A stretch of DNA of 64,000 nucleotides from Dehalococcoidia bacterium (GTDB lineage: Bacteria > Chloroflexota > Dehalococcoidia > Lucifugimonadales > UBA3495): positions 9,563 through 73,562 of the forward strand of contig DAOUIF010000036.1 of assembly GCA_034423575.1 (NCBI GenBank), written 5' to 3'. The notes beneath the pieces are model-generated. The model was not told the DNA's origin, did no database searches, and saw only the letters and a list, made by a program, of their open reading frames with translations. Numbering within the stretch: position 1 is the stretch's first letter; every line of letters starts with the position of its first letter. The position numbers and the translations under genes were made by a program. Positions 2,808 to 18,137 of the stretch are shown in pieces.

Positions 2808-3163
2808 CCCTTCGTCCCGCCGCCAAGGATGCGCCGGGTTGACGGGTCTTGACCCTGTCAGCGGCCACCCAGCATCGTCATGCCGCCGCGGCTCCGCCAA
2901 CAGGGCTGTTACAGGGGAAATGCCAGCTATGGTTCAGCACTATTAGCGTGACCACTTCTAACCTCCTGTTTTGACGATGGTCTGGCCATCGGGTTTTCGG
3001 CGGGTGGGAGTTCCCTACACCCCCAGCACCTTGAATACATAGTATATCGGGTTCTGATGCTTGTCAACCCCAAATCGAATAATTGATATCGAAGTTTCAT
3101 CGTATCAACGCAACGGCGGCCAGATGGTTTAAACTACGCGAAAATGGCTTTGACATTGGAGAA

Positions 3164-4372
3164 ATGGCAGGAATGAGCTCAGCCGACAGCAACGGAACCG
3201 CCGCGCAACGGCCGGCACCCAGCGTTTACGGCGAGGACGGAGTGACCATCATCGGCATGATCGGCGTGGTGCGCGAGTCCGAGGCAAACCGGGGCGCAAC
3301 GTTGAGCCTGTTCGGCGGTGGGATCAACCCGGGCGCGGAAGTTCCTTCCGGCGTGGACCCGGACTACATCCTGGACTTCGCCCGTACCCACGAGGACGCC
3401 GGCTTCAACATGGTGCTGACCGGCTATTCCTCGTCCACTCCGGACGGGTTCGAGGTCGCCGGATACGCAGCGGCGCACACCGAGCGCCTGGGTTACTTGA
3501 TCGCGCACCGCCCCGGGTTCGTGGCGCCGACACTCGCGGCCAGGAAGACCGCCACCCTGGACCAACTCACTAACGGGCGCATCGCCCTGCACATAATTAC
3601 CGGGGGCAACGACGTCGAGCAGCGGCAGGACGGCGACTGGCTGGATCACGACTCGCGATATCGACGCACCGACGAGTACTTGGACATCATGCGACGCATC
3701 TGGACGGAGACGGAGCCATTCGATCACGATGGCGAATTCTACCGCCTGCAGGCGGCCTTCAGCCAAGCCCGGTGCCGGCAGCGTCCTCATGTGCCGCTGT
3801 TCTTCGGTGGGGCTTCAGGGGCGGCACTGGATGCTGCCAGCCGTCGCGCCGACCTTTTCGCGCTGTGGGGAGAGCCGAGAGCGTCTATCGCCGAACGCAT
3901 CGCTGACGTACGTCGGCGGGTTATTGCGGCCGGTCGCGATGCGGCAGAGATGCGATTCAGCCTGTCGGCGCGACCCATCCTCGCGGAAACCGAGGAAAAG
4001 GCCTGGCAGCGGGCAGAGGAAATCCTGGCCCGAGTGCGGCAGGCCACGGCGGGACGTATCACGCCAGGCATCCCCACCCGGCCGCAATCCGAGGGCGCTT
4101 GGCGGCTGCTACGTTTCGCGGCCGAAGGAAACGTCTACGACGAGCGGCTCTGGATGCCAATTGCGGCGGCCAGCGGTGCGTCGGGAAGCACCACGTGCCT
4201 GGTGGGCACGCCGCAGCAGGTGGCTGACGCCCTGCTGGCCTACTACGACCTGGGATGCAGCGCATTCATCATTCGTGGGTTCGATCCACTGGCGGACGCA
4301 GCCGATTACGGCAGGGAATTGATACCGCTAGTGCGGGAAGGCGTCGCCCAACGGCGCCAGACCGCCGTGTGA
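3164..4372 (+). CDS. LLM-class (luciferase-like) flavin-dependent oxidoreductase/monooxygenase
   Basis: ORF 3083..4372. DFARTHEDAGFNMVLTGY, YLIAHRPGFVAPTLAARKTATLDQLTNGRIALHIITGG and RYRRTDEYLDIMRRIW are typical of the SsuD-like LLM family. Start is ATG 3164 or 3173 (GGAG at 3158); the 5' end is uncertain. Confidence 0.75.
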   Translation: MAGMSSADSNGTAAQRPAPSVYGEDGVTIIGMIGVVRESEANRGATLSLFGGGINPGAEVPSGVDPDYILDFARTHEDAGFNMVLTGYSSSTPDGFEVAGYAAAHTERLGYLIAHRPGFVAPTLAARKTATLDQLTNGRIALHIITGGNDVEQRQDGDWLDHDSRYRRTDEYLDIMRRIWTETEPFDHDGEFYRLQAAFSQARCRQRPHVPLFFGGASGAALDAASRRADLFALWGEPRASIAERIADVRRRVIAAGRDAAEMRFSLSARPILAETEEKAWQRAEEILARVRQATAGRITPGIPTRPQSEGAWRLLRFAAEGNVYDERLWMPIAAASGASGSTTCLVGTPQQVADALLAYYDLGCSAFIIRGFDPLADAADYGRELIPLVREGVAQRRQTAV

Positions 4373-5745: not shown

Positions 5746-8535
5746 ATGGTCGTCGTCAGTCCAACGATCAGCGTGACGGTTGATGGGATTCCGGTGAACG
5801 TGGCAGCGGGGGCCAGCGCGCTGGATGCAGTGAATGCGGCTGGCGTGCCCCTCTCCCAATTGTGCAAAGACGCCGATATGCCCGCCATCGGCGCCTGTCG
5901 GACCTGCCTGGTGCAGATTGACGGCATCCGTGGGTTTCCCGCCTCATGCTCGACGCCGGCCACCGACGGCATGGTCATCCGCACCGACGGGCCCGATGCC
6001 CAGCGGATCCGTTCCGGCGTCATCCAACTAACTCTCGGCATGGTGGGCAAAGGCAACGGGTCGATTGACGGCTACGATCTGCTGTCGGACGCAGCCAGCA
6101 CGCACGGGATTTCCCAAACGCGATGGGACCCCCGGCCCCGCCAGCGGACGGACGAGTCCAACCCGGTGTTCGACCTCGCCATGGATGCGTGCATCCTGTG
6201 CGCCCGGTGTGTCAACGCCTGCCAGTCCAGTCACCAGTTCATCGGCGCGATTGACGTGCTGGGTGCGGGCGGTTCGGCTCGTATCGCTACCGCGGGAGAC
6301 AAGCCGCTGGGAGAAAGCATCTGCACCACCTGCGGACAATGCCTCAGCGTTTGCCCAACTGGCGCCATCAGCGTGAAAACACCGCCGGACTCTGCGTCGC
6401 CTACCCGCCAAGTCAAGACCACGTGTCCCTACTGCGGCGTTGGCTGCGGGATCAAACTGGAGGTCAGCGACACTGCAGAAGGACCGGACGCGGGTACGAT
6501 CGTTGCTTCACATGACGATCCCGACAACCTGTCCAGCGTTGGGATGCTGTGCGTGAAGGGACGCTTCGGCTACACCTTCGTGCAGCACGGTGACCGTATC
6601 AAGAAGCCGCTGATACGGGAAGGCGACCGCTTCAGCGGCGACTTTCGGGAGGCGACCTGGGACGAAGCGCTGGACTTGGTGGCCTCGCGGCTGGCCGATT
6701 ACCGCGGCGAATCCTTTGGCACGTTGTGCTCGGCCAAGGCGACCAATGAAGACGGTTACGTGCAGCAGAAATTCGCCCGGCTGATCATGGGCAGCAACAA
6801 CATCGACCACTGCACGCGCCTGTGTCATGCGCCGTCGGTGGAGGCCATGCTGACCTCGCTGGGCAGCGGGGCCACCAGCAATTCGTACACCGATTACGAA
6901 GCGGCGGGGTGCCTGTTGGTCACCGGCTGCGATCCGACAAGCAACCATCCGGTTGCCGCCGCGCGGATGCGTCGCGCCGTAGTGGAACGCGGGGCCGGGC
7001 TAATCGTCATCAACCCCCGTCGCATTGATATGTGCGACTACGCCGACCTGTGGCTGCGTCCTTATCCGGGCACCGACGTGGCCCTGCTGAACGCCATGGC
7101 TCACGTCGTAGTTTCGGAGGGCCTGTCCGATGCAGACTTCGTGACCAACCGCACAGAGGGTTACAACGACTGGCTCGCTATCATTAATCGCTACTCGCCG
7201 GAACGTGCCGCCGCCGTCACCGGAGTTCACGCCGATGACATCCGCGCCGCCGGCCGCCTGTTCGCCCGACCACAGGCGCCGAAGGGCAGCGTCTCCGCGC
7301 CGAGATACGACGGTTCCTGTCTGATCTGGGGCATGGGAATAACCCAGCACACCAATGGCACTCCCAACGTTCACAGCTTGCTCAACCTGGCGCTGGTAAC
7401 CGGGCAGTTAGGACGGCCCGGGTCCGGAGTCTCTCCCTTGCGTGGCCAGAACAACGTGCAGGGCTGCGGCGACGCCGGGTGCTTGCCCAATTCCCTGCCG
7501 GGCTATCAAGGTTTGCGCTCGGACGCTGTTGCCAAGTTCGACGCCGCTTGGGAAGCTGACGGCTCGCTCCCCGAGGTCGCCGGGATGATGGTGACCGACA
7601 TGGTGGATGCCATCGGCGAAGCGGGCGGCGTGCAAGCGATGTACATCACTGGAGAAAACCCGCTGCTCAGCGAGCCGGATCTCAACCGGGCAGACGAGTT
7701 GTTCCGCCGGTTGGACTTCCTGGTGGTGCAGGACATCTTCATGCACGAAACTGCCCTGCTGGCCGATGTAGTACTGCCCGCCACCAGCTTCGCCGAGAAA
7801 GATGGGACCTTCACCAATAGCGAACGACGCGTCCAGCGGGTGCGGCAGGCCGTGGCTCCGGTGGGCAACAGCCGGCCGGATTGGGATATCGTGTGCGACC
7901 TGGCCCGACGGATGTGCGACCGGCTGGATTTGCCTTGGGCAGGGCAGTTCGGTTTTCAGCATCCTGGAGAGATTTTTGAAGAGATGGCTGGTTTAACGCC
8001 GATTCTGGCGGGTATATCTTACGAGCGGCTCGACACCGAAGGCGGGCTCCAGTGGCCGTGCCCGACGCCCGACCATCCCGGCACCAGTTATCTCTATGGC
8101 GAGAGTTTCCCCCGGGGCGACCGGGCCCGGTTCATCGGCTACGATCAGGGGCCGATGGCTGAGGAAACACCCTCAGAGCGGTTCCCTCTGCTGCTGAACA
8201 CCGGCAGGGTCTTGTACCACTGGCACGGCGGTACCATCACCCGGCGGGTCGGCAACCTCCTGGCGCGGATGGCGGACCTCGAAGTGTCCGTCAATCCCGC
8301 CGACGGCGAGCGGTTGGGCTTGCGCGACGGCGAGCCCGTTCGGGTACGCTCTCGCCGCGGCGAACTGACCGGGGTAGCGCGTTTCACCTACCGGATGCGC
8401 GTTGGCGAGATTTTCATTCCCTTCGTGCGGTTGAACGAATCCGCTGCGAATTTCCTGACCAACGCGGTGTACGATCCGGACTCGCGGATCCCGGAGTACA
8501 AGGTATGCGCTGTGCGGGTAGAACCCACCGAGTGA
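5746..8535 (+). CDS. fdhA: Formate dehydrogenase alpha subunit / molybdopterin oxidoreductase with N-terminal 2Fe-2S and 4Fe-4S domains (Cys-type)
   Basis: ORF 5542..8535; ATG 5746 follows GGGGGTG. N-terminus ISVTVDGIPVNV..CRTCLVQIDG (2Fe-2S), CILCARCVNAC and CGQCLSVCPTGA (4Fe-4S), TTCPYCGVGCG (MopB Fe-S), then NNIDHCTRLCHAPSV active-site context with TGT Cys at 6823-6825. Confidence 0.85.
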   Translation: MVVVSPTISVTVDGIPVNVAAGASALDAVNAAGVPLSQLCKDADMPAIGACRTCLVQIDGIRGFPASCSTPATDGMVIRTDGPDAQRIRSGVIQLTLGMVGKGNGSIDGYDLLSDAASTHGISQTRWDPRPRQRTDESNPVFDLAMDACILCARCVNACQSSHQFIGAIDVLGAGGSARIATAGDKPLGESICTTCGQCLSVCPTGAISVKTPPDSASPTRQVKTTCPYCGVGCGIKLEVSDTAEGPDAGTIVASHDDPDNLSSVGMLCVKGRFGYTFVQHGDRIKKPLIREGDRFSGDFREATWDEALDLVASRLADYRGESFGTLCSAKATNEDGYVQQKFARLIMGSNNIDHCTRLCHAPSVEAMLTSLGSGATSNSYTDYEAAGCLLVTGCDPTSNHPVAAARMRRAVVERGAGLIVINPRRIDMCDYADLWLRPYPGTDVALLNAMAHVVVSEGLSDADFVTNRTEGYNDWLAIINRYSPERAAAVTGVHADDIRAAGRLFARPQAPKGSVSAPRYDGSCLIWGMGITQHTNGTPNVHSLLNLALVTGQLGRPGSGVSPLRGQNNVQGCGDAGCLPNSLPGYQGLRSDAVAKFDAAWEADGSLPEVAGMMVTDMVDAIGEAGGVQAMYITGENPLLSEPDLNRADELFRRLDFLVVQDIFMHETALLADVVLPATSFAEKDGTFTNSERRVQRVRQAVAPVGNSRPDWDIVCDLARRMCDRLDLPWAGQFGFQHPGEIFEEMAGLTPILAGISYERLDTEGGLQWPCPTPDHPGTSYLYGESFPRGDRARFIGYDQGPMAEETPSERFPLLLNTGRVLYHWHGGTITRRVGNLLARMADLEVSVNPADGERLGLRDGEPVRVRSRRGELTGVARFTYRMRVGEIFIPFVRLNESAANFLTNAVYDPDSRIPEYKVCAVRVEPTE

Positions 8536-8552
8536 CGGGTTGGCAGCCCGTC
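8534..8552. terminator. Short GC hairpin between convergent fdhA and redoxin genes (possible U-tract-less terminator)
   Basis: GACGGG (8534-8539) pairs with CCCGTC (8547-8552). It overlaps the fdhA stop and has no U-tract on either side. Confidence 0.2.
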
Positions 8553-8562
8553 ATCGCGCATC

Positions 8563-9054
8563 CTATTGGCTGCGCAATCGAGCCCGTTCCCGCCCTTCAA
8601 TGAAGTGCACCGCTTCGTCCGGGCTGACCCGACCCACCGGGCCGCTGGCGTACATGGAACCCAGTACGGTGCCCCCGCGCACAAGCAGGAGTTCGGTGGG
8701 TTGGATGTAACCACCGCGGTCGTCGGACCACCAGGAACCGAGCATGTCGGCCTGCTCCCGGGTGACGCCGTAGGCCATGGGGAAGGTGACGCCGGACTTG
8801 GTGGCCATTTCCTCCACAACTTCCCTGGGTTCCACGCTGGCGCCGATTATCGACAGTCCCATCTCGGCAAGAGCATCCTGCTCTGATTGCCACGCGGCCA
8901 ACTGCCGCGAGCAGTACGGTCACCAAACGCCGCGATAGAACAACACGGCAAGGTAACGCGACGACATATCTTTCGGCAGGGTCAGCGTGCCGCCGTCAAT
9001 GAGATTTAGGTCCAATTCGGGCAGACGGTCGCCCTGTTGCAGTTTCTCAGTCAT
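8563..9054 (-). CDS. AhpC/TSA (Prx-like redoxin) family thiol-disulfide oxidoreductase with in-frame TGA at 8922-8920; candidate selenocysteine U45 in a W-U-P-Y-C motif
   Basis: The track shows only 8563..8901 (112 aa). The same frame continues upstream through one TGA to ATG 9054 (GAGGGA SD, 2 nt after the upstream stop): MTEKLQQGDRLPELDLNLIDGGTLTLPKDMSSRYLAVLFYRGVW-TGA-PYCSRQLAAWQSEQDALAEMG. The TGA replaces the first Cys of the family's FYRGxWCPxC motif. Confidence 0.6.
8868..8919 (-). promoter_or_regulatory. Candidate SECIS-like stem-loops downstream of the redoxin TGA
   Basis: In mRNA sense after UGA there are three candidate hairpins. First, CCGUACUGC/GCAGUUGG, a stem with a bulged U (8919-8898). 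Second, UUGGCC-GCGU-GGCAA, a hairpin with a bulged G (8901-8887). Third, CAGAGC-AGGAU-GCUCUUG (8885-8868). All were folded by eye only. Confidence 0.3.
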
Positions 9055-9056
9055 CG

Positions 9057-9575
9057 TTATCCCTCGTTATCGAGCCTTGCTTCGCCGTTGGGAAGGGCGG
9101 GCCAGAACAGCTCGTACAGCCGGTCGGACAGCTCTTCGCATAAGCCTACCCCGGCGGCTACTTCGGTCGCTGTTTCTTCATCCTCGTAAAAGTTGCTGTG
9201 CAACCCCCGGGCCGTGCGAAAAGCGTTGGCAATCCACTCCTGTGTTGCCGTGTCGCCTGCATCGCCAACCAGTCCACCCAACTCTCGAATCACCGTCCAG
9301 ATGGAACCGTGGGAGTGGATGACCCCGCCGTGCCGTGCGCTAACGGCTTTAATGGTCTCGGCGACCATTCCCCATGCCTTATTGGAAGCTTGGGGCAAAT
9401 CACCATCCTCCAGTAAGTGCTTCCATGCACTCGCCCGGAAATCCCGTCCGAGCTGAGCATATTTCTCCGCTGTTCGGCCGGCGTCAGCCGGCTGAACCGG
9501 GTCCCTGGCGGCCGCCAGGCCCCGGGCCACAGCGTCGGCGACGTCACTGTCAGAGAAGGTCAGCGGCGTTGACAT
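9057..9575 (-). CDS. PaREP1-like (HEPN-superfamily related) protein of unknown function
   Basis: ORF 9057..9629; ATG 9575 lies 2 nt after the upstream TAG. HLLEDGDLPQASNKAWGMVAETIKAVSARHGGVIHSHGSIW and ARGLHSNFYEDE resemble my recollection of the PaREP1 pattern (GD.xQASEKxWGA...H.....LHxNFYE). This is family recall, not a search. Confidence 0.4.
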   Translation of the reverse strand: MSTPLTFSDSDVADAVARGLAAARDPVQPADAGRTAEKYAQLGRDFRASAWKHLLEDGDLPQASNKAWGMVAETIKAVSARHGGVIHSHGSIWTVIRELGGLVGDAGDTATQEWIANAFRTARGLHSNFYEDEETATEVAAGVGLCEELSDRLYELFWPALPNGEARLDNEG

Positions 9576-9577
9576 TG

Positions 9578-10801
9578 CTAGTCGCCGACGGCTTCGGCGG
9601 TGGTCGACTTTAGACGCTCGGGCCACCACGGGTCGTCATATTCGTTGAAGAGACCCTTCATGTGGGGCATCACTTCATTGGCGAACAGGTCAGTGTTCTT
9701 CCGTACCAGTTCAGGCGGCATGCTTCCAATCTGGAGCAACACCATGAGGTGTCCGATACGGAGCATCTCGCAGGCCTCGGTTAGCTTGCGCCGGACCGTC
9801 TCCGGGCTCCCGCCGATGACATGGCCCTGCTCGATATAGTCTTTCCAGCTGTTCTCCTGGGCGGTGCGGTGCGCCTCTTCGCCCATCTGCGGGCGCAGGG
9901 ATTTGCGGATGGACTCCAGCGATCGATAACCGGGAGATTCGGCGAAGGGCGGGTACACCCGCAGCATCTTCTCGTAGAAATATTTCACGTGTTGCTCGTA
10001 ATCTTTTTCCGCCTGCTCGTCAGTCTCCGAAACGCAAACCAACTGCAAAAATCCCAAGCGGTGGGGGTTGTCATCGACTCCACGCTCGGCAACTCGCTCC
10101 CAATAGCCCTTGACGATGTTGTGGCCGCGCAGATAGCCGTAGTAGGACAGGTAGCAATACACGTAGTCCCGATCCAGCACCCAGTCCCAAGTCTCCAGGC
10201 TGCCGGACCCGGGGATCCACACCGGCGGGTGAGGCTCCTGCATCGGACGCGGCCAGATGCTGATGTAGCGCAGCTTGTTGTACTTGCCGTTGAAAATCGT
10301 CGGCTGGTGCTGGGTCCAGGCCTGCATGATCACGTCGTGCGCTTCGGTATGGCGGTCGCGCAACGTGATGGGCACCTGGCCGTAGGAGAACGTCGTGTCC
10401 ATTGCGGTTCCCACCGGGAATCCGGCTACCAGACGGCCGTTGGAAATGACATCGAGCATCGCCATCTCCTCCGCCACGCGCACGGGCGGGTTGTACAGGG
10501 CAAGGCTGTTGCCCAATACGATCACAGCGCCGTTGTTTGTGGAGTTCGCCAGCACCGAAGCGATCAGATTGGGCGATGGCATGATGCCGTATGCATTGTT
10601 GTGGTGCTCGTTGACGCAGATGCCGTCGAACCCGACCTCGTCGGCGTAGCGCAACTGGTCGATGTACTGAGCGTAGTATTCGTTGCCCTTGGCCGGGTCA
10701 AAGTTTTCGTTGGGCAGGTCTACCCACGCCGAGTGGTGTTGCTGGGCGAAATCGTCCGGCAGGTCCTGGTATGGCATGAGGTGGAAAAATGAGACTTTCA
10801 T
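9578..10801 (-). CDS. LLM-class flavin-dependent oxidoreductase
   Basis: MKVSFFHLMPYQDLPDDF..YADEVGFDGICVNEHHNNAYGIMPSPNLIASVLA..GRLVAGFPVGT is a typical luciferase-like monooxygenase family sequence. Confidence 0.8.
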   Translation of the reverse strand: MKVSFFHLMPYQDLPDDFAQQHHSAWVDLPNENFDPAKGNEYYAQYIDQLRYADEVGFDGICVNEHHNNAYGIMPSPNLIASVLANSTNNGAVIVLGNSLALYNPPVRVAEEMAMLDVISNGRLVAGFPVGTAMDTTFSYGQVPITLRDRHTEAHDVIMQAWTQHQPTIFNGKYNKLRYISIWPRPMQEPHPPVWIPGSGSLETWDWVLDRDYVYCYLSYYGYLRGHNIVKGYWERVAERGVDDNPHRLGFLQLVCVSETDEQAEKDYEQHVKYFYEKMLRVYPPFAESPGYRSLESIRKSLRPQMGEEAHRTAQENSWKDYIEQGHVIGGSPETVRRKLTEACEMLRIGHLMVLLQIGSMPPELVRKNTDLFANEVMPHMKGLFNEYDDPWWPERLKSTTAEAVGD

Positions 10802-10848
10802 CGGAGGCTACCTCGGAGGCGGGTTGGCCTGTAGGGCCGGATAATCGG

Positions 10849-10857
10849 ATTTTAGCA
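10849..10857 (-). promoter_or_regulatory. Candidate extended -10 promoter (TGCTAAAAT) for the LLM / PaREP1-like / redoxin operon
   Basis: Reverse complement of 10849-10857 is TGCTAAAAT, about 45 nt upstream of the LLM ATG. No clear -35. Confidence 0.3.
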
Positions 10858-10862
10858 TGAAG

Positions 10863-10903
10863 CAGGCCCGATCCCGCGCGTCACCGGGACCGGGCCTGTT
10901 TTT
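10863..10903. terminator. Long GC hairpin downstream of the alpha/beta hydrolase gene
   Basis: CAGGCCCG (10863-10870) pairs with CGGGCCTG (10891-10898), with an inner TCCCG/CGGGA stem. A TTTTT run follows only in the + reading; in the minus reading an A-run precedes it. Confidence 0.4.
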
Positions 10904-12989: not shown

Positions 12990-13216
12990 GCACAAACCAC
13001 GGCACCCCAGTTAGTGTACCCAACCACAGCTAGCCGATGAAGTGGCCCACATCGCCGCCGCAACGCTGGTTTGGGATGCCTGATAACTATACGTACTGCC
13101 CATTTACAGTGTCAACGACGGAGGCCGACCGTGACTTTTTCGCGGCTCAATTTTACTGCCGTGTGGTATCATTGCGCCCGTTATACCATCCCGCACCAAC
13201 CGCTCCGATACGACGT

Positions 13217-13708
13217 ATGTACCGACTCGCAATTCTGACTATCAGCAGTTCCGGCGCGCGAGGCGAACGCGAAGACACCGGTAGCCAGGCCATCCGCGAC
13301 AAGCTGCCCCCTCCCGACTACGAGGAAGTACGCTACGAAATCGTGGCGGATGACGCCGACACCATTGCCGCCAGAATGGCTGAGTGGGCCGATTCCGGAG
13401 AGGTGGATCTGATCGTCAGTACGGGCGGCACCGGTATGGGCCGGCGCGACGTCACGCCTGAAGCGGCCAAGCGCGCAATGGACCGTGAGGTCCCGGGCAT
13501 GGCTGAGACGATGCGGTCGCAGACCCTCCAGTTTACGCCTATGGCAATGCTGAGCCGCTCGGTAGCGGGTATTCGCGGACAGACGCTAATCATCACATTG
13601 CCCGGAAGTCCTCGGGGCGTGGGCGAATGCCTCGATGTTATTCTCTCCGTCATACCCCACGCTATCGAACTCCTGCAGCGCGAATCGGTACAGGAACACC
13701 CACGCTGA
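13217..13708 (+). CDS. mogA: MogA/MoaB family molybdenum cofactor biosynthesis protein
   Basis: ORF 13037..13708; start taken as ATG 13217 (MYRLAILTISSSGARGEREDTG). VDLIVSTGGTGMGRRDVTPEA is the MoaB/MogA signature. Confidence 0.8.
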   Translation: MYRLAILTISSSGARGEREDTGSQAIRDKLPPPDYEEVRYEIVADDADTIAARMAEWADSGEVDLIVSTGGTGMGRRDVTPEAAKRAMDREVPGMAETMRSQTLQFTPMAMLSRSVAGIRGQTLIITLPGSPRGVGECLDVILSVIPHAIELLQRESVQEHPR

Positions 13709-14221: not shown

Positions 14222-15226
14222 CTACAGCAATACGGGTTCCTTTTCCTTCTGGTACACCTGTATCCGGCCACGCGTGTGGTCGATGATGGCGATCTGGCCC
14301 GAGTCGGACACGTGCACCGCGCACGGGTTGGCGAAGGCCTTCTCGAATGCGCCACCGTCGTGGATGATCGCCATGGTCCGTTGCCGAATCATGTCCGGAT
14401 TGGAGTTCAACTTGGTTTTGCCCCACTCGGATAGGGTGTAGTCTCCCTTCAACTGGGCGCGGAAGCGTCCGTCGGGAGCAAGAATCTGAACCCGGTCGTT
14501 TTCGCGGTCGCAGACGTAGATATCACCGTCGTTGTCAACGAAGACGGCGTTGGGCCGCTTGAACTGGCCAGGGCCGTCGCCGCTGGAGCCGAAACTGGCT
14601 TGCCACTCGCCGGCTTGGGTGAAACACTGGATACGGTCGTTTCGCCAGTCGGCGACGTAGATCAGACCATTCTTGTCCAAGCAGAGGCCCCAAGGCATAT
14701 TCAACTGGCCATCAGCCGTGCCGAATTCCCCAAACTGGCTCTTGAACGTGCCGTCCAGCCCGTAGCTCTGAATACGGTGGTTCTTGGCATCCACTACCCA
14801 AACGGTGTCCCCGTCAATCCTGATGCCCGAGGGGCCGTTGAACTCTCCGGGCCCATCGCCAGCGGTACCCCAGTGGGAGACGTAGTCACCGTCTTCTGTG
14901 AAAATGGTGATGCGGTTCAGGTATTCATCAGCGACGTACAGGTTGCCCTCGCTGTCCAGGGCGCAGGAACTGGGCCAGTACATGTCGCCCGGGTCTTCGC
15001 CGAACTTGCTGAACTCGCCAACCAGCTCTTCGTTCAGCGTGGCGACGGTTACATGTACGCCGTCCGGGCGGTTTTCGTAGGAGCGATTGAGGACGTAGAC
15101 CCTGCCTTCGGCATCCACAGCCATGTCCACCGGGTTGCGGAACCCGGTGCCGTTGAACTCATTGCGTCCCACGGAGTGGCTATAGGTAAAGGCGGTGTCC
15201 ACGAGGCCAAACAGATGGGTACTCAT
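14222..15226 (-). CDS. NHL-repeat six-bladed beta-propeller protein
   Basis: Six repeats of the type LYVADEYLNRITIF, VWVVDAKNHRIQSY, IYVADWRNDRIQCF, IYVCDRENDRVQIL and IAIIDHTRGRIQVY. Confidence 0.85.
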   Translation of the reverse strand: MSTHLFGLVDTAFTYSHSVGRNEFNGTGFRNPVDMAVDAEGRVYVLNRSYENRPDGVHVTVATLNEELVGEFSKFGEDPGDMYWPSSCALDSEGNLYVADEYLNRITIFTEDGDYVSHWGTAGDGPGEFNGPSGIRIDGDTVWVVDAKNHRIQSYGLDGTFKSQFGEFGTADGQLNMPWGLCLDKNGLIYVADWRNDRIQCFTQAGEWQASFGSSGDGPGQFKRPNAVFVDNDGDIYVCDRENDRVQILAPDGRFRAQLKGDYTLSEWGKTKLNSNPDMIRQRTMAIIHDGGAFEKAFANPCAVHVSDSGQIAIIDHTRGRIQVYQKEKEPVLL

Positions 15227-15321: not shown

Positions 15322-16461
15322 CTACAGGAAGGGAACCTTCTCGAAGACGCCACGGTTGATGGGGTTGGAATCCAGACCCATCCAGTCTTCCAGGATGGTG
15401 GCGTAAACCTGGCGGAAGTCCATGTTGGACTTGAGGTTGCCGCCCTCTTCCTGATCGGCCGGAGCCAGGGACGGATAGACGCCGTAGATCCCGCCCTTGA
15501 CCTTTTCGCCGACTGCGAAGGCCACAGAGCCTGCACCGTGATCAGTACCCGAGCCGTTGTCGCCGATGCGGCGGCCGAACTCGGAGAACATGAACGTGAT
15601 GACGTTGTCGCTGGCGTCGTGATCCCGGAGGTCGTTGATGAAGGTGTCAACGTTGGCCGAAACGTCGGTCCACAGCCGCGCGTGGTCGGTGGCCTGGTTG
15701 GCGTGGGTGTCGAAGCCGTTGTAGGGACTGGTAGTGAACAGCACGCGGGTGCCCAAGTCGGCCAGATGGGTCTGGGCGATGTTCTTCATGTACTGGCCGA
15801 CGGTGCTGCTGGAGTACTCCACGTTAGAGGTGTACTTCGGCGGCGCGGTGGCCAGAATGTCGGCGCCGATTCGGGCGTAGGTGCCCGTGGAGCGCAGGTA
15901 GTCGCTGACGAAGCCCTGTCCCACGGTGGGGGCGTAGATCTTGCTGAACAGGTCTAACGCCTCGGCACGCTGGTCATCCCCTTCGATGCCGGTCAGCAGA
16001 CCGTAGGTCTCGAGGTTGCCGACGGAGGCGACGGGCACGCCTTCCTTGGCCAGGGCGCGGGGAAGGCCGCGGCCGAAGTTCACGCCGGTGATGCCCTGGC
16101 CCTCGTTGTTCGGGTCCAGTTCCTTGATGACCTGACCCAGCCAACCCTCGGTGCCGATGGTGTCCGGTTCGCAGGTATGCCAAATGTCCATGCTGCGGAA
16201 GTGGCTGTAGGACGGGTTGGCGTAGCCGATTCCCACGAAGATGGCGAGCTTGCCCTCGTCCCAATACTTCTTCAGCGGCCCCATGGTGGGGTGCAGGCCG
16301 ATCTCGCCGTTCAGGTCCAGGATCGCTTCGGTGGGAACACCCAGAGCCGGGCGAAAATCGCGGTAATGACCGTCGCTATAGGGGATGACGGTGTTCAGGC
16401 CGTCGTTCCCGCCGGAGAGCGAGAGCACGACCAGAACGTTGTCTTTGTTGGTAGAGACCAT
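15322..16461 (-). CDS. DUF1501 family protein (sulfatase/alkaline-phosphatase-like)
   Basis: ORF 15322..16683; ATG 16461 follows GGAGGA. VLSLSGGNDGLNTVIPY, FDTHANQ and GTDHGAGS are characteristic. No twin-arginine signal at this start. Confidence 0.75.
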   Translation of the reverse strand: MVSTNKDNVLVVLSLSGGNDGLNTVIPYSDGHYRDFRPALGVPTEAILDLNGEIGLHPTMGPLKKYWDEGKLAIFVGIGYANPSYSHFRSMDIWHTCEPDTIGTEGWLGQVIKELDPNNEGQGITGVNFGRGLPRALAKEGVPVASVGNLETYGLLTGIEGDDQRAEALDLFSKIYAPTVGQGFVSDYLRSTGTYARIGADILATAPPKYTSNVEYSSSTVGQYMKNIAQTHLADLGTRVLFTTSPYNGFDTHANQATDHARLWTDVSANVDTFINDLRDHDASDNVITFMFSEFGRRIGDNGSGTDHGAGSVAFAVGEKVKGGIYGVYPSLAPADQEEGGNLKSNMDFRQVYATILEDWMGLDSNPINRGVFEKVPFL

Positions 16462-16573
16462 TTGATAGTCCTCCGTTGTGTTTGCCGGTTCGCAGTGAAT
16501 TTGCTTGGCGGGACCGTCGCTGCGCTTGTCCAGGTGATCGGAGCGCGGCCCGCCGGGTGTCAGCGGTTCCGGA

Positions 16574-17998
16574 TTACTCGAACTGGAACTCCGACGTGGA
16601 AGCGATGATCTGGAACATCTCGCCGGAGCGGCGGGTGAACTCAGCGCGCTCGCCGTCGGTGCCGTGGGTGAGGTTGCCACCACGGCCGGCGTGGGCGATC
16701 AATTGATCGCGGGTGTCCTCGGTGAGGTTCAGGCAGCCCACCAGGTCGGCGCAGGTGTCGACGAACTGCTCAGGGGACAGGGTGTCGCCCTGGGCCATTA
16801 GCTTGGAGATCATGCTCTGGACGCCGGGCAACTCAGTGCGGCCCAGGTAGTCCGCCGCGAAGTTGATCCGCTCCACCAGGGTGCCCGAGTCGATCCACTC
16901 GTGACCGGTGTGCCAGCCTTCAACCGTGGGCGGGTTCATGAGGTCCATGCCCATGTACTTGGGCTCCTGGCTCAGCTCGAACATGCCGGGCTTGATCTCG
17001 TCCCGGTGGTCGCCAACCATGCGCAGGGTGCCGGCCACCATCTCGGCCGGGTTCTTCACCTTGGCGTACCGGGCATTCTTGAAGGCGTCGGAGTTGAACA
17101 GCGTGCGCAGCATCTCGGTGATGTTGTAGCCGTTGTCGAAGTAGGTCTGCTCCAAGGCCGCCAGGAGGCTCTCGTCCTTGGGCGGGGTCTGCCGCCAACT
17201 GGGAACCGGAACCTCGTCGGCCACGAAGAAGTTGTACATGTGCCGGGAGATGAACCGGGCAGTAGCCTTCTGGTCCGCGATGATGTCGAGGATGTCGTCG
17301 CCGTTCCAGTTGCCGGTGCGGCCCAGGAACGTCTTCTCGGAGTCGTCATGGTCGGCGGGGTCGAAGCGGAACTCCCAGGGGCTGCGGCCGTAGGGGAACG
17401 GCGGGTACGGCGGGGCGATGTTCCAACCGGTGAACGCGCGGGCCGTGGCCTTCACGTCGTCCTCCGAATAGTTGAACTCTTCGTTCATTCCCACGCCCAT
17501 GGAGAACAGTTCCAGCAGTTCGCGGCCGTAGTTCTCGTTGATGTTCGTCTTGTGGCTCTCGCAGTTGTCCAGGTAGTAGACCATGCCCGGACTGGTGGAC
17601 AGATCCATTAGCAGTTCCCGGAAATTGCCCATGCCCTTGTCCCGGAACATCTGGATCATCCGGCCCATTTCTTCGCCGGAGTCGATCTTGGAGTGGCCAG
17701 CGCAGAAGATCATGTGCCAGAAGAGGGCCATCTTCTCCTTCAGCTGGTACTCGGTGTTGACCATGCGGTACACCCAGTTCTGGATGTTGATCTCGATGGC
17801 GCCCGCGTGGTTGTAGGTGGGATGGTAGCGCAGCATGATGTCGTCTTCGACGCCCGAGGTCGAACCTGGGTTCAGCAGCTCCTCCACCACGGTGTCATAG
17901 CCTCGCGCAGCGGCGGTTTCGATCTCGTCGCGGCTGGCGCCGAAGCCGGCCCGGCGGAGAAGGTGCGCCATCAGCGCGATGTCGTTGCTTCCTGCCAT
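16574..17998 (-). CDS. DUF1800 family protein
   Basis: ORF 16574..18079; ATG 17998 follows AAGGAGGAA. The N-terminus MAGSNDIALMAHLLRRAGFGASRDEIE is the typical DUF1800 opening. Confidence 0.75.
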   Translation of the reverse strand: MAGSNDIALMAHLLRRAGFGASRDEIETAAARGYDTVVEELLNPGSTSGVEDDIMLRYHPTYNHAGAIEINIQNWVYRMVNTEYQLKEKMALFWHMIFCAGHSKIDSGEEMGRMIQMFRDKGMGNFRELLMDLSTSPGMVYYLDNCESHKTNINENYGRELLELFSMGVGMNEEFNYSEDDVKATARAFTGWNIAPPYPPFPYGRSPWEFRFDPADHDDSEKTFLGRTGNWNGDDILDIIADQKATARFISRHMYNFFVADEVPVPSWRQTPPKDESLLAALEQTYFDNGYNITEMLRTLFNSDAFKNARYAKVKNPAEMVAGTLRMVGDHRDEIKPGMFELSQEPKYMGMDLMNPPTVEGWHTGHEWIDSGTLVERINFAADYLGRTELPGVQSMISKLMAQGDTLSPEQFVDTCADLVGCLNLTEDTRDQLIAHAGRGGNLTHGTDGERAEFTRRSGEMFQIIASTSEFQFE

Positions 17999-18137
17999 TG
18001 GTTCCTCCTTTTTTGCCTTGGGGACAGGGCCCCGATTGACCGATTCCTTGTGCTGAAAATATAACGCAATAACCGTCATTCTCGCAATCGCAAACAGCCA
18101 TCAACTGTTCGAGTTGCCGAACGATTATCAGATTAGA

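Follow-up and report, generated by a model that had tools for sequence, protein, structure and literature searches.

A predicted operon of a luciferase-like oxidoreductase, a PaREP1/HEPN-family protein and a selenoprotein redoxin in a marine Dehalococcoidia bacterium

Expansions of luciferase-like (LLM-class) flavin-dependent oxygenases, the FMNOs, in SAR202 bacteria have been hypothesised to act as type II Baeyer-Villiger monooxygenases together with an esterase (Landry et al. 2017, PMC5395668). In this published idea, LLM/FMNO oxygenases open recalcitrant aliphatic or alicyclic compounds, and esterase and CoA-level steps follow (PMC5395668). The GOS selenoproteome includes an abundant marine family, 'Prx-like 1, pfam00578, UxxC' (Zhang & Gladyshev, PMC2398784; also PMC13188914), also called Prx-like thiol:disulfide oxidoreductase. 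The PaREP1/8 proteins were described by Anantharaman et al. 2013 as an archaeal family placed within the HEPN-T clade that keeps the His of the Rx4-6H motif and lacks its Arg, occurs as tandem repeats and lineage-specific expansions, and has 2q00 listed as its structure (PMC3710099). Here we analysed a window of 64,000 nucleotides from a Dehalococcoidia bacterium (contig DAOUIF010000036.1, positions 9,563 to 73,562), in which genes encoding an LLM oxidoreductase, a PaREP1-like protein and a redoxin with a putative selenocysteine (Sec) lie in tandem on the minus strand. We consider it somewhat more probable than otherwise that they form a real operon assembled stepwise from separable parts, in which the redoxin and then an autonomous PaREP1 protein joined a catabolic LLM block.

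Layout and conservation of the operon

The genes, and the elements at the head of the operon, are listed here.

9578..10801, minus strand: LLM-class (luciferase-like, class C) flavin-dependent oxidoreductase, 407 aa (PF00296)
9057..9575, minus strand: PaREP1/HEPN-family protein, 172 aa, six predicted helices (PF05942)
8563..9054, minus strand: predicted selenoprotein redoxin, AhpC/TSA fold, active site W-U-P-Y-C (Prx-like, UxxC type), 163 aa (PF00578 and PF08534)
10849..10857, minus strand: putative extended -10 element TGCTAAAAT of the three-gene operon (direct sequence reading and recurrence in relatives)
10810..10814, minus strand: Shine-Dalgarno sequence GAGGT of the LLM gene, 8 nt 5' of the start codon, with (C)GAGGT in nearly all related loci
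10860..10900, minus strand: GC-rich large hairpin directly 3' of the upstream alpha/beta-hydrolase stop, terminator-like, without a U-tract

Neighbouring open reading frames (ORFs) of the three are separated by 2 nt, as seen in the ORF calls and in the sequence itself: the junction between LLM and PaREP1-like genes is TAG-CA-ATG, and that between PaREP1-like and redoxin genes is TAA-CG-ATG. A sequence-only reading of this DNA had described both junctions in the same way, and the gene identities it proposed are supported by Pfam for all three proteins. Of about 43 compared loci, most have about 2-20 nt between LLM and PaREP1 and a few have more, and all except one have -8 to +40 nt between PaREP1 and redoxin, often as an ATGA-type overlap. 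The Shine-Dalgarno sequence of the redoxin sits in the last PaREP1 codons, which encode a variable C-terminal tail predicted to be disordered.

The extended -10 element pointed out in the sequence-only reading is present, and a TGnTA(C/A)AAT sequence recurs about 47-55 nt 5' of the LLM start in about 45 related loci, although their further-upstream flanks are unrelated. A scan for sigma-70 promoters with two hexamers returned no match near the operon because the extended -10 has no accompanying -35 match, and the only terminator-like site in the same scan lies on the opposite strand within the PaREP1 gene, at the level expected by chance. The large hairpin reported after the upstream gene is also there: at 10900-10860 it folds with -39.2 kcal/mol (z = -3.86), and an equally good fold arose in 2 of 200 shuffles. 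A similar sequence occurs in the closest relative (L005); the hairpin is not generally kept among related loci. We infer that the LLM, PaREP1 and redoxin genes constitute an operon with its own conserved promoter and are co-transcribed.

The distance from the hydrolase to the LLM gene ranges from about 100 to 1,370 bp among relatives, with unrelated intervening sequence; this variation reflects insertions of Uma2-family genes in several of them. One or two such genes, which encode putative restriction-endonuclease-like proteins, lie between the hydrolase and the LLM promoter at L001:2630-3693 and L089-L096:2821-3414, and the promoter element is still present downstream of the insert.

The order LLM, one to four PaREP1 copies, Sec-redoxin was found at every sampled locus whose LLM is at least 91% identical, so the conservation of the triad that had been proposed for other genomes holds within this group. 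The same result was reached via PaREP1 (about 40 species-level genomes) and separately via LLM (8 of 8 places); in the latter set the downstream flank differs (formate dehydrogenase, unknown genes, transposases) and the three genes stay together. Outside the group the parts separate. A 78%-identical LLM relative lies in the order HIT protein, enoyl-CoA hydratase, alpha/beta hydrolase, LLM, Sec-redoxin, glyoxalase, with a 48-nt spacer and no PaREP1. A 74% relative has neither PaREP1 nor redoxin (HIT protein, methyltransferase, enoyl-CoA hydratase, alpha/beta hydrolase, LLM, glyoxalase), and in the sampled relatives at 69-73% identity the LLM is accompanied by a Baeyer-Villiger monooxygenase, a hydrolase or another LLM, again with neither PaREP1 nor redoxin. 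Redoxin homologues with Cys in place of Sec are found in unrelated neighbourhoods that are not linked to LLM. Within the block, PaREP1 evolves fastest (59-77% identity, versus 91-99% for LLM, 74-97% for the redoxin and 80-97% for the enoyl-CoA hydratase).

The operon LLM matches PF00296 (Bac_luciferase; E 4.6e-33, 115 bits versus a cut-off of 27.9), and its best solved relatives are luciferase-like monooxygenases dependent on flavin mononucleotide (FMN). Against NCBIfam it stays below every subfamily cut-off; its cofactor may be FMN or F420. It is one of the SAR202-type FMNO paralogues. Upstream of the operon and on the same strand are genes encoding a HIT protein, an enoyl-CoA hydratase and an alpha/beta hydrolase, the best NCBIfam matches of which are enol-lactonases and esterases, all under their cut-offs. 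The locus shares with the SAR202 FMNO scheme the protein superfamily and the bacterial lineage, and the esterase/lactonase-like hydrolase and the hydratase would suit a route from oxygenase to hydrolase to CoA-level steps. It differs from the scheme in that the orthologue group of this LLM is unusually conserved (91-99% identity over about 40 genomes) and in that one clade adds two genes absent from the published proposal. A literature search combining SAR202, LLM and sponge found no paper. A second LLM-class oxidoreductase is encoded 5 kb away, at 3083-4372 on the plus strand (429 aa, PF00296 E 1e-73), beside an aminotransferase; its 22% identity to the operon LLM is consistent with a SAR202-type expansion of LLM paralogues.

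A redoxin with a predicted selenocysteine

Two features within the redoxin gene bear on how its in-frame TGA is read.

8920..8922, minus strand: UGA at codon 45, predicted to be read as selenocysteine (conservation and Cys homologues)
8888..8913, minus strand: bacterial hairpin resembling a selenocysteine insertion sequence (SECIS), core stem C-GCGGC/GCCGC-G, loop AGUUG, starting 10-11 nt after the UGA

When U is replaced by C, the protein matches PF00578 (E 7.4e-18, 65 bits versus a cut-off of 26) and also PF08534 (Redoxin). The TGA is kept in 43 of 43 orthologues, in one frame on both flanks and at 74-97% protein identity, and four full-length homologues with 49-54% identity (P0143, P0145, P0165, P0171) have WCPYC, with Cys at the Sec position. 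Synonymous sites are frozen over the hairpin: the entropy of synonymous codons falls to 0-0.37 bits in codons 48-53, against a gene mean of 1.07 and 1.26 upstream, a clear constraint at the RNA level just downstream of the UGA. Three sequence variants all adopt the hairpin as their minimum-free-energy fold, and the copy in the window adds a lower stem with a bulged U. It is likely to be a SECIS element, and the proposal that the TGA encodes selenocysteine is borne out by the orthologues, the Cys homologues and the frozen synonymous sites together. On these sequence grounds we regard the third gene as encoding a genuine UxxC selenoprotein of a known family. Most database entries of the family are C-terminal fragments of 95-113 aa, as expected since gene callers stop at the Sec codon.

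In two JGI 'peroxiredoxin' homologues (P0142 and P0148, 57-61% identical) the motif is W-W-PYC; the Trp that stands there in place of Sec could stem from a genuine TGG codon or from a TGA that the source pipeline rendered as Trp.

Like Prx-like 1, the redoxin combines an AhpC/TSA fold, Sec as the first residue of UxxC, many Cys homologues and occurrence in marine bacteria. It fits that family as a specific subfamily, marked by a CPYC-type motif like that of glutaredoxin (WUPYC) and by a conserved C-terminal GSMYASGPVGR. It does not conform to the PxxxTxxC peroxidase motif, as Sec occupies the Thr position and gives a CxxC-type motif, and it scores far under the cut-offs of the NCBIfam Prx equivalog models. 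It also falls short of the cut-off of every NCBIfam selenoprotein model (17 bits versus 120 for SelL_rel_redox). The nearest solved sequences, with weak scores (E about 3e-4), are ResA-type WCPxC oxidoreductases, the motif of which aligns with WUPYC and points to thiol-disulfide exchange chemistry. ResA/TlpA/StoA-type proteins act in cytochrome c or spore maturation from outside the cytoplasm, anchored to the membrane; unlike them, the redoxin has no signal peptide or anchor.

Because Sec stands at the Thr position, the nearest solved relatives are of ResA type and the Prx equivalog scores are low, the redoxin looks like a selenolate-based thiol-disulfide oxidoreductase, nearer to ResA-like CxxC proteins than to TxxC peroxidases. 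The sequence-only reading had offered it either peroxide or a disulfide as a target; the ResA-like CxxC favours the disulfide, and peroxide scavenging is possible as a less direct reading. A full-text literature search for SAR202 and selenoprotein found no paper.

A bacterial PaREP1/HEPN branch

The middle protein exceeds the gathering cut-off of PF05942 (E 4.8e-11; 43 bits versus 24.4), as do 29 of 29 aligned homologues, and no other Pfam family was matched. Together with HEPN proteins as the best fold matches, this upholds the PaREP1/HEPN assignment made from the sequence. The alignment contains about 45 invariant residues, among them the motifs DLPQAS-KAWG, HGGxIHxH and ARxLHxNFYED and Cys146. 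H126 is invariant within LHxNFYED, and the sole nearby Arg, R123, lies at -3 (RxxH) and not at -5 to -7. An AlphaFold2 model has six helices and a mean confidence (pLDDT) of 89, and its top Foldseek matches in the PDB are HEPN proteins (2hsb, 1ufb, 2q00, 4nqf and the sacsin HEPN domain), with probability 1.0 and target TM-scores of 0.65-0.70 but weak E values (0.016-0.4). The PaREP1 profile matched nothing among PDB sequences even at E = 10, NCBIfam has no model for the protein, and the PADLOC defence models gave no credible match for PaREP1 or its array neighbours.

In a library of 1.84 billion representatives at 50% identity, the profile matched 492 proteins with E <= 0.001, 13 of them with E <= 1e-30; with so few strong matches, the bacterial PaREP1 clade is compact. 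Most of the distant relatives are about 120 aa long and do not have the N-terminal helix. All 78 retrieved PaREP1 loci come from Dehalococcoidia, Chloroflexota or SAR202 records. Two library representatives, P0361 (356 aa, two domains) and P0417 (1023 aa, about 10 matched stretches), repeat a PaREP1-like domain in one protein; these are apparently fusions of tandem array genes or cases where stop codons between array members were missed.

The sequence-only reading had presented PaREP1 as mainly archaeal and related to HEPN; the family is so described (PMC3710099), and the copies found here are bacterial. With archaeal PaREP1/PaREP8 they share passage of the Pfam cut-off, the PQAS-KAWG and LHxNFYE motifs, the conserved His, a HEPN-like helical fold, the lack of an Arg at the canonical Rx4-6H spacing, and the habit of tandem repeats and lineage-specific expansions. 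They differ in being bacterial and not crenarchaeal, in their length of about 160-172 aa with an extra N-terminal helix (compared with about 120 aa in the majority of distant relatives), in lying within metabolic operons and not beside MNT or restriction-endonuclease genes, and in having an Arg three residues before the His (RxxH). The bacterial distribution widens the known range of PaREP1 and is compatible with family membership. HEPN-MNT toxin-antitoxin systems share the HEPN-like fold (7ae9 is among the weaker Foldseek matches); here, by contrast, no MNT gene occurs among the annotated neighbours (LLM, redoxin, ThrC or further PaREP1), the protein lacks the canonical Rx4-6H motif, and PADLOC found no match.

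PaREP1 genes also occur away from the operon. A second syntenically stable locus has one to three copies divergent from a paralogue of the enoyl-CoA hydratase (about 33% identical to the hydratase of the window) and is represented by L040:5986-7754, with equivalents in L038, L043, L047, L051, L052, L054, L057-L059, L061 and L075. In L040, the sole locus of this type examined, PaREP1 lies 71 nt upstream of a threonine synthase gene (ThrC; NCBIfam 540 bits versus a cut-off of 303). The ThrC-type locus co-occurs in genomes with LLM-linked copies. The 3.78-Mb Dehalococcoidia sequence OZ241860.1 contains more than 20 further PaREP1 loci, where as many as 9 co-oriented copies fall within 12 kb and LLM and redoxin are absent (L039, L045, L049, L050, L053, L055, L056, L062, L065-L068 and L070-L074). 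Many of these copies miss the first 25-30 or so residues of the alignment, and three tested ORFs interspersed in the arrays have no Pfam or PADLOC match. A neighbour-joining tree places the LLM-linked, ThrC-linked and array copies each in a group of their own.

Two other ideas about the protein were dropped. The PaREP1 copies are poor candidates for precursors of ribosomally synthesised and post-translationally modified peptides (RiPPs) acted on by the LLM, as the entire 160 aa is a conserved folded domain and variation is limited to loops and tails. A hemerythrin- or DinB-like metal site formed by the invariant His, Asp and Glu residues was also abandoned, since no such fold was matched.

Origin of the operon and its chromosomal setting

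Stepwise assembly from separable parts, the reading to which we lend modest preference, would have proceeded as follows. The old core would be the catabolic block of HIT protein, enoyl-CoA hydratase, lactonase/esterase-like alpha/beta hydrolase and LLM, with the LLM gene served by an extended -10 promoter of its own. On the model of the SAR202 FMNO hypothesis, the LLM would oxygenate a recalcitrant aliphatic or alicyclic substrate, and the hydrolase and hydratase would process the product. A cytoplasmic UxxC selenoredoxin may then have joined the LLM transcription unit behind the LLM gene, its UGA presumably recoded via the hairpin that begins about 11 nt downstream. It would most likely be a selenolate-based reductase of thiol-disulfides (or of hydroperoxides or sulfenates) that repairs or prevents oxidative damage beside the oxygenase, a protective role that is plausible because it is co-expressed with an O2-activating flavoenzyme. 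In the last step a PaREP1/HEPN gene would have been inserted between the LLM and redoxin genes and tandemly duplicated to give one to four copies. PaREP1 would be needed by neither neighbour and would ride on the expression of the operon, while its 3' end now provides what appears to be the ribosome-binding site of the redoxin. We hold with moderate confidence that PaREP1 acts autonomously, as a HEPN-type RNA-directed or binding protein independent of the LLM chemistry, because of the ThrC-linked locus, the arrays, its fast evolution and the tandem and lineage-specific expansion described for archaeal PaREP1/8.

Several observations weigh against this reading. PaREP1 is never missing from the LLM site within its clade (about 50 loci, including the 8 of 8 sampled via LLM alone), and the LLM-linked copies form one coherent neighbour-joining group; clade-wide retention and coherent grouping fit a useful, retained role at the site. 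The direction of gain is deduced from LLM identity as a proxy for relatedness, and loss of PaREP1 and redoxin in the outgroups is possible. For the selenoprotein, the orthologues display no covariation in the SECIS-like stem because the stem is invariant. Pfam found none of the Sec-decoding genes selA, selB and selD among the scanned ORFs of the window, including about 30 further ones, and ARAGORN detected no tRNA at all in the window, and hence no tRNA-Sec. Likewise, an Rfam scan of the window at gathering thresholds gave no match, hence no curated SECIS or other RNA.

The absence of Sec machinery from the window and of an Rfam match, along with the fact that gene callers split the redoxin into ORFs of 44 aa and about 100 aa, could be taken to mean that the TGA is a plain stop, the third gene either a pseudogene or a pair of short, unrelated ORFs, and the number of functional genes in the operon just two. 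We give this next to no credence, given a Sec family that was already known, a TGA that falls exactly at the first Cys of CxxC in the Cys homologues and persists in all 43 orthologues with a single frame and high identity on both sides, and the RNA-level constraint directly downstream. The sequence-only reading had speculated about a self-contained oxidation module; developed further, this becomes one dedicated unit in which the LLM oxidises a substrate, the Sec-redoxin removes peroxide or reduces a disulfide or sulfenate, and PaREP1 is a required adaptor or regulator (for example via Cys146). A fixed triad wherever the LLM is at least 91% identical, tight or overlapping junctions, the clustering of LLM-linked PaREP1 copies and about 45 invariant PaREP1 residues, one Cys included, are what such a module would predict. 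Its parts nevertheless come apart outside the clade: the 78% relative has LLM and Sec-redoxin without PaREP1, the LLM orthologues at 69-74% lack either partner, and Cys-redoxin homologues are not linked to LLM. The supposed adaptor, moreover, varies from one to four copies and has close paralogues in arrays or beside threonine synthase, where LLM and redoxin are absent. In this form the proposal is not supported by the comparison, and we judge it unlikely, though the strict retention of PaREP1 at this site within the clade keeps the adaptor or regulator idea alive.

Two further readings also tie PaREP1 to its neighbours, and each appears to us distinctly improbable. PaREP1-like proteins could be general accessory or stabilising partners of adjacent enzymes, of the LLM here and of threonine synthase at the second locus. 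At both of these independent loci, each of stable synteny, PaREP1 is co-oriented with and near an enzyme gene, and the extra N-terminal helix and variable surface regions could confer partner specificity. HEPN/PaREP1 proteins as enzyme subunits are without precedent, however (PMC3710099), the orthologous enzymes work in relatives without PaREP1, and the arrays of OZ241860.1 place up to 9 copies among ORFs of which the three tested have no Pfam match. Alternatively, the Dehalococcoidia PaREP1 clade might be no passenger but a HEPN-derived factor bound up with the operon, either acting on the operon mRNA, by governing the stability or UGA recoding of the redoxin message that starts within the PaREP1 3' end, or serving as a redox-switched partner with its Cys146 cycled by the Sec-redoxin; the arrays would then be a diversifying reservoir of this activity.

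The window is otherwise ordinary chromosome, with genes for ATP synthase subunits, a tRNA synthetase, DNA polymerase III delta' and a family III CoA-transferase, and it also holds a molybdenum enzyme of the xanthine dehydrogenase type. All three operon proteins have their homologues in metagenome-assembled genomes of Dehalococcoidia, Chloroflexota or the "SAR202 cluster", and the host is a marine Dehalococcoidia (SAR202-like) bacterium. A formate dehydrogenase alpha subunit (5749-8535, plus strand; TIGR01591, 707 bits, above the cut-off) converges on the 3' end of the operon. Where Sec is usual it carries Cys instead (..CTRLCHAPSV..), 30 bp from a gene that evidently uses Sec. A short hairpin (GACGGG-CUGCCAA-CCCGUC, 8534-8552) in the 27-nt gap between the redoxin and formate dehydrogenase stops overlaps the dehydrogenase stop on the opposite strand; it may serve both convergent units as a bidirectional terminator. 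Molybdenum cofactor genes (encoding XdhC, a MobA-like protein and a MoCF_biosynth protein) lie near the formate dehydrogenase, at 668-2719 and 13037-13708. A DUF1501/DUF1800 gene pair (15322-18079, minus strand) adjoins the gene of an NHL-repeat beta-propeller protein (14222-15226); near the LLM block of relatives, DUF1800 occurs in L086 and L087 and NHL in L081 and L082.

Every component of the operon belongs to a known family, and no new kind of system is revealed. The analysis recovers a predicted selenoprotein that gene callers routinely cut in two, with 43 orthologues and a conserved SECIS-like element. The PaREP1 family, "archaeal" by its Pfam label, includes a sizeable branch in bacteria that shows the same tandem arrays and lineage-specific expansion. 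Finally, LLM alone, LLM with redoxin, and LLM with PaREP1 and redoxin make up what looks like a dated series of operon growth, which could be used to probe what a selenoredoxin contributes to oxygenase metabolism of the SAR202 type.

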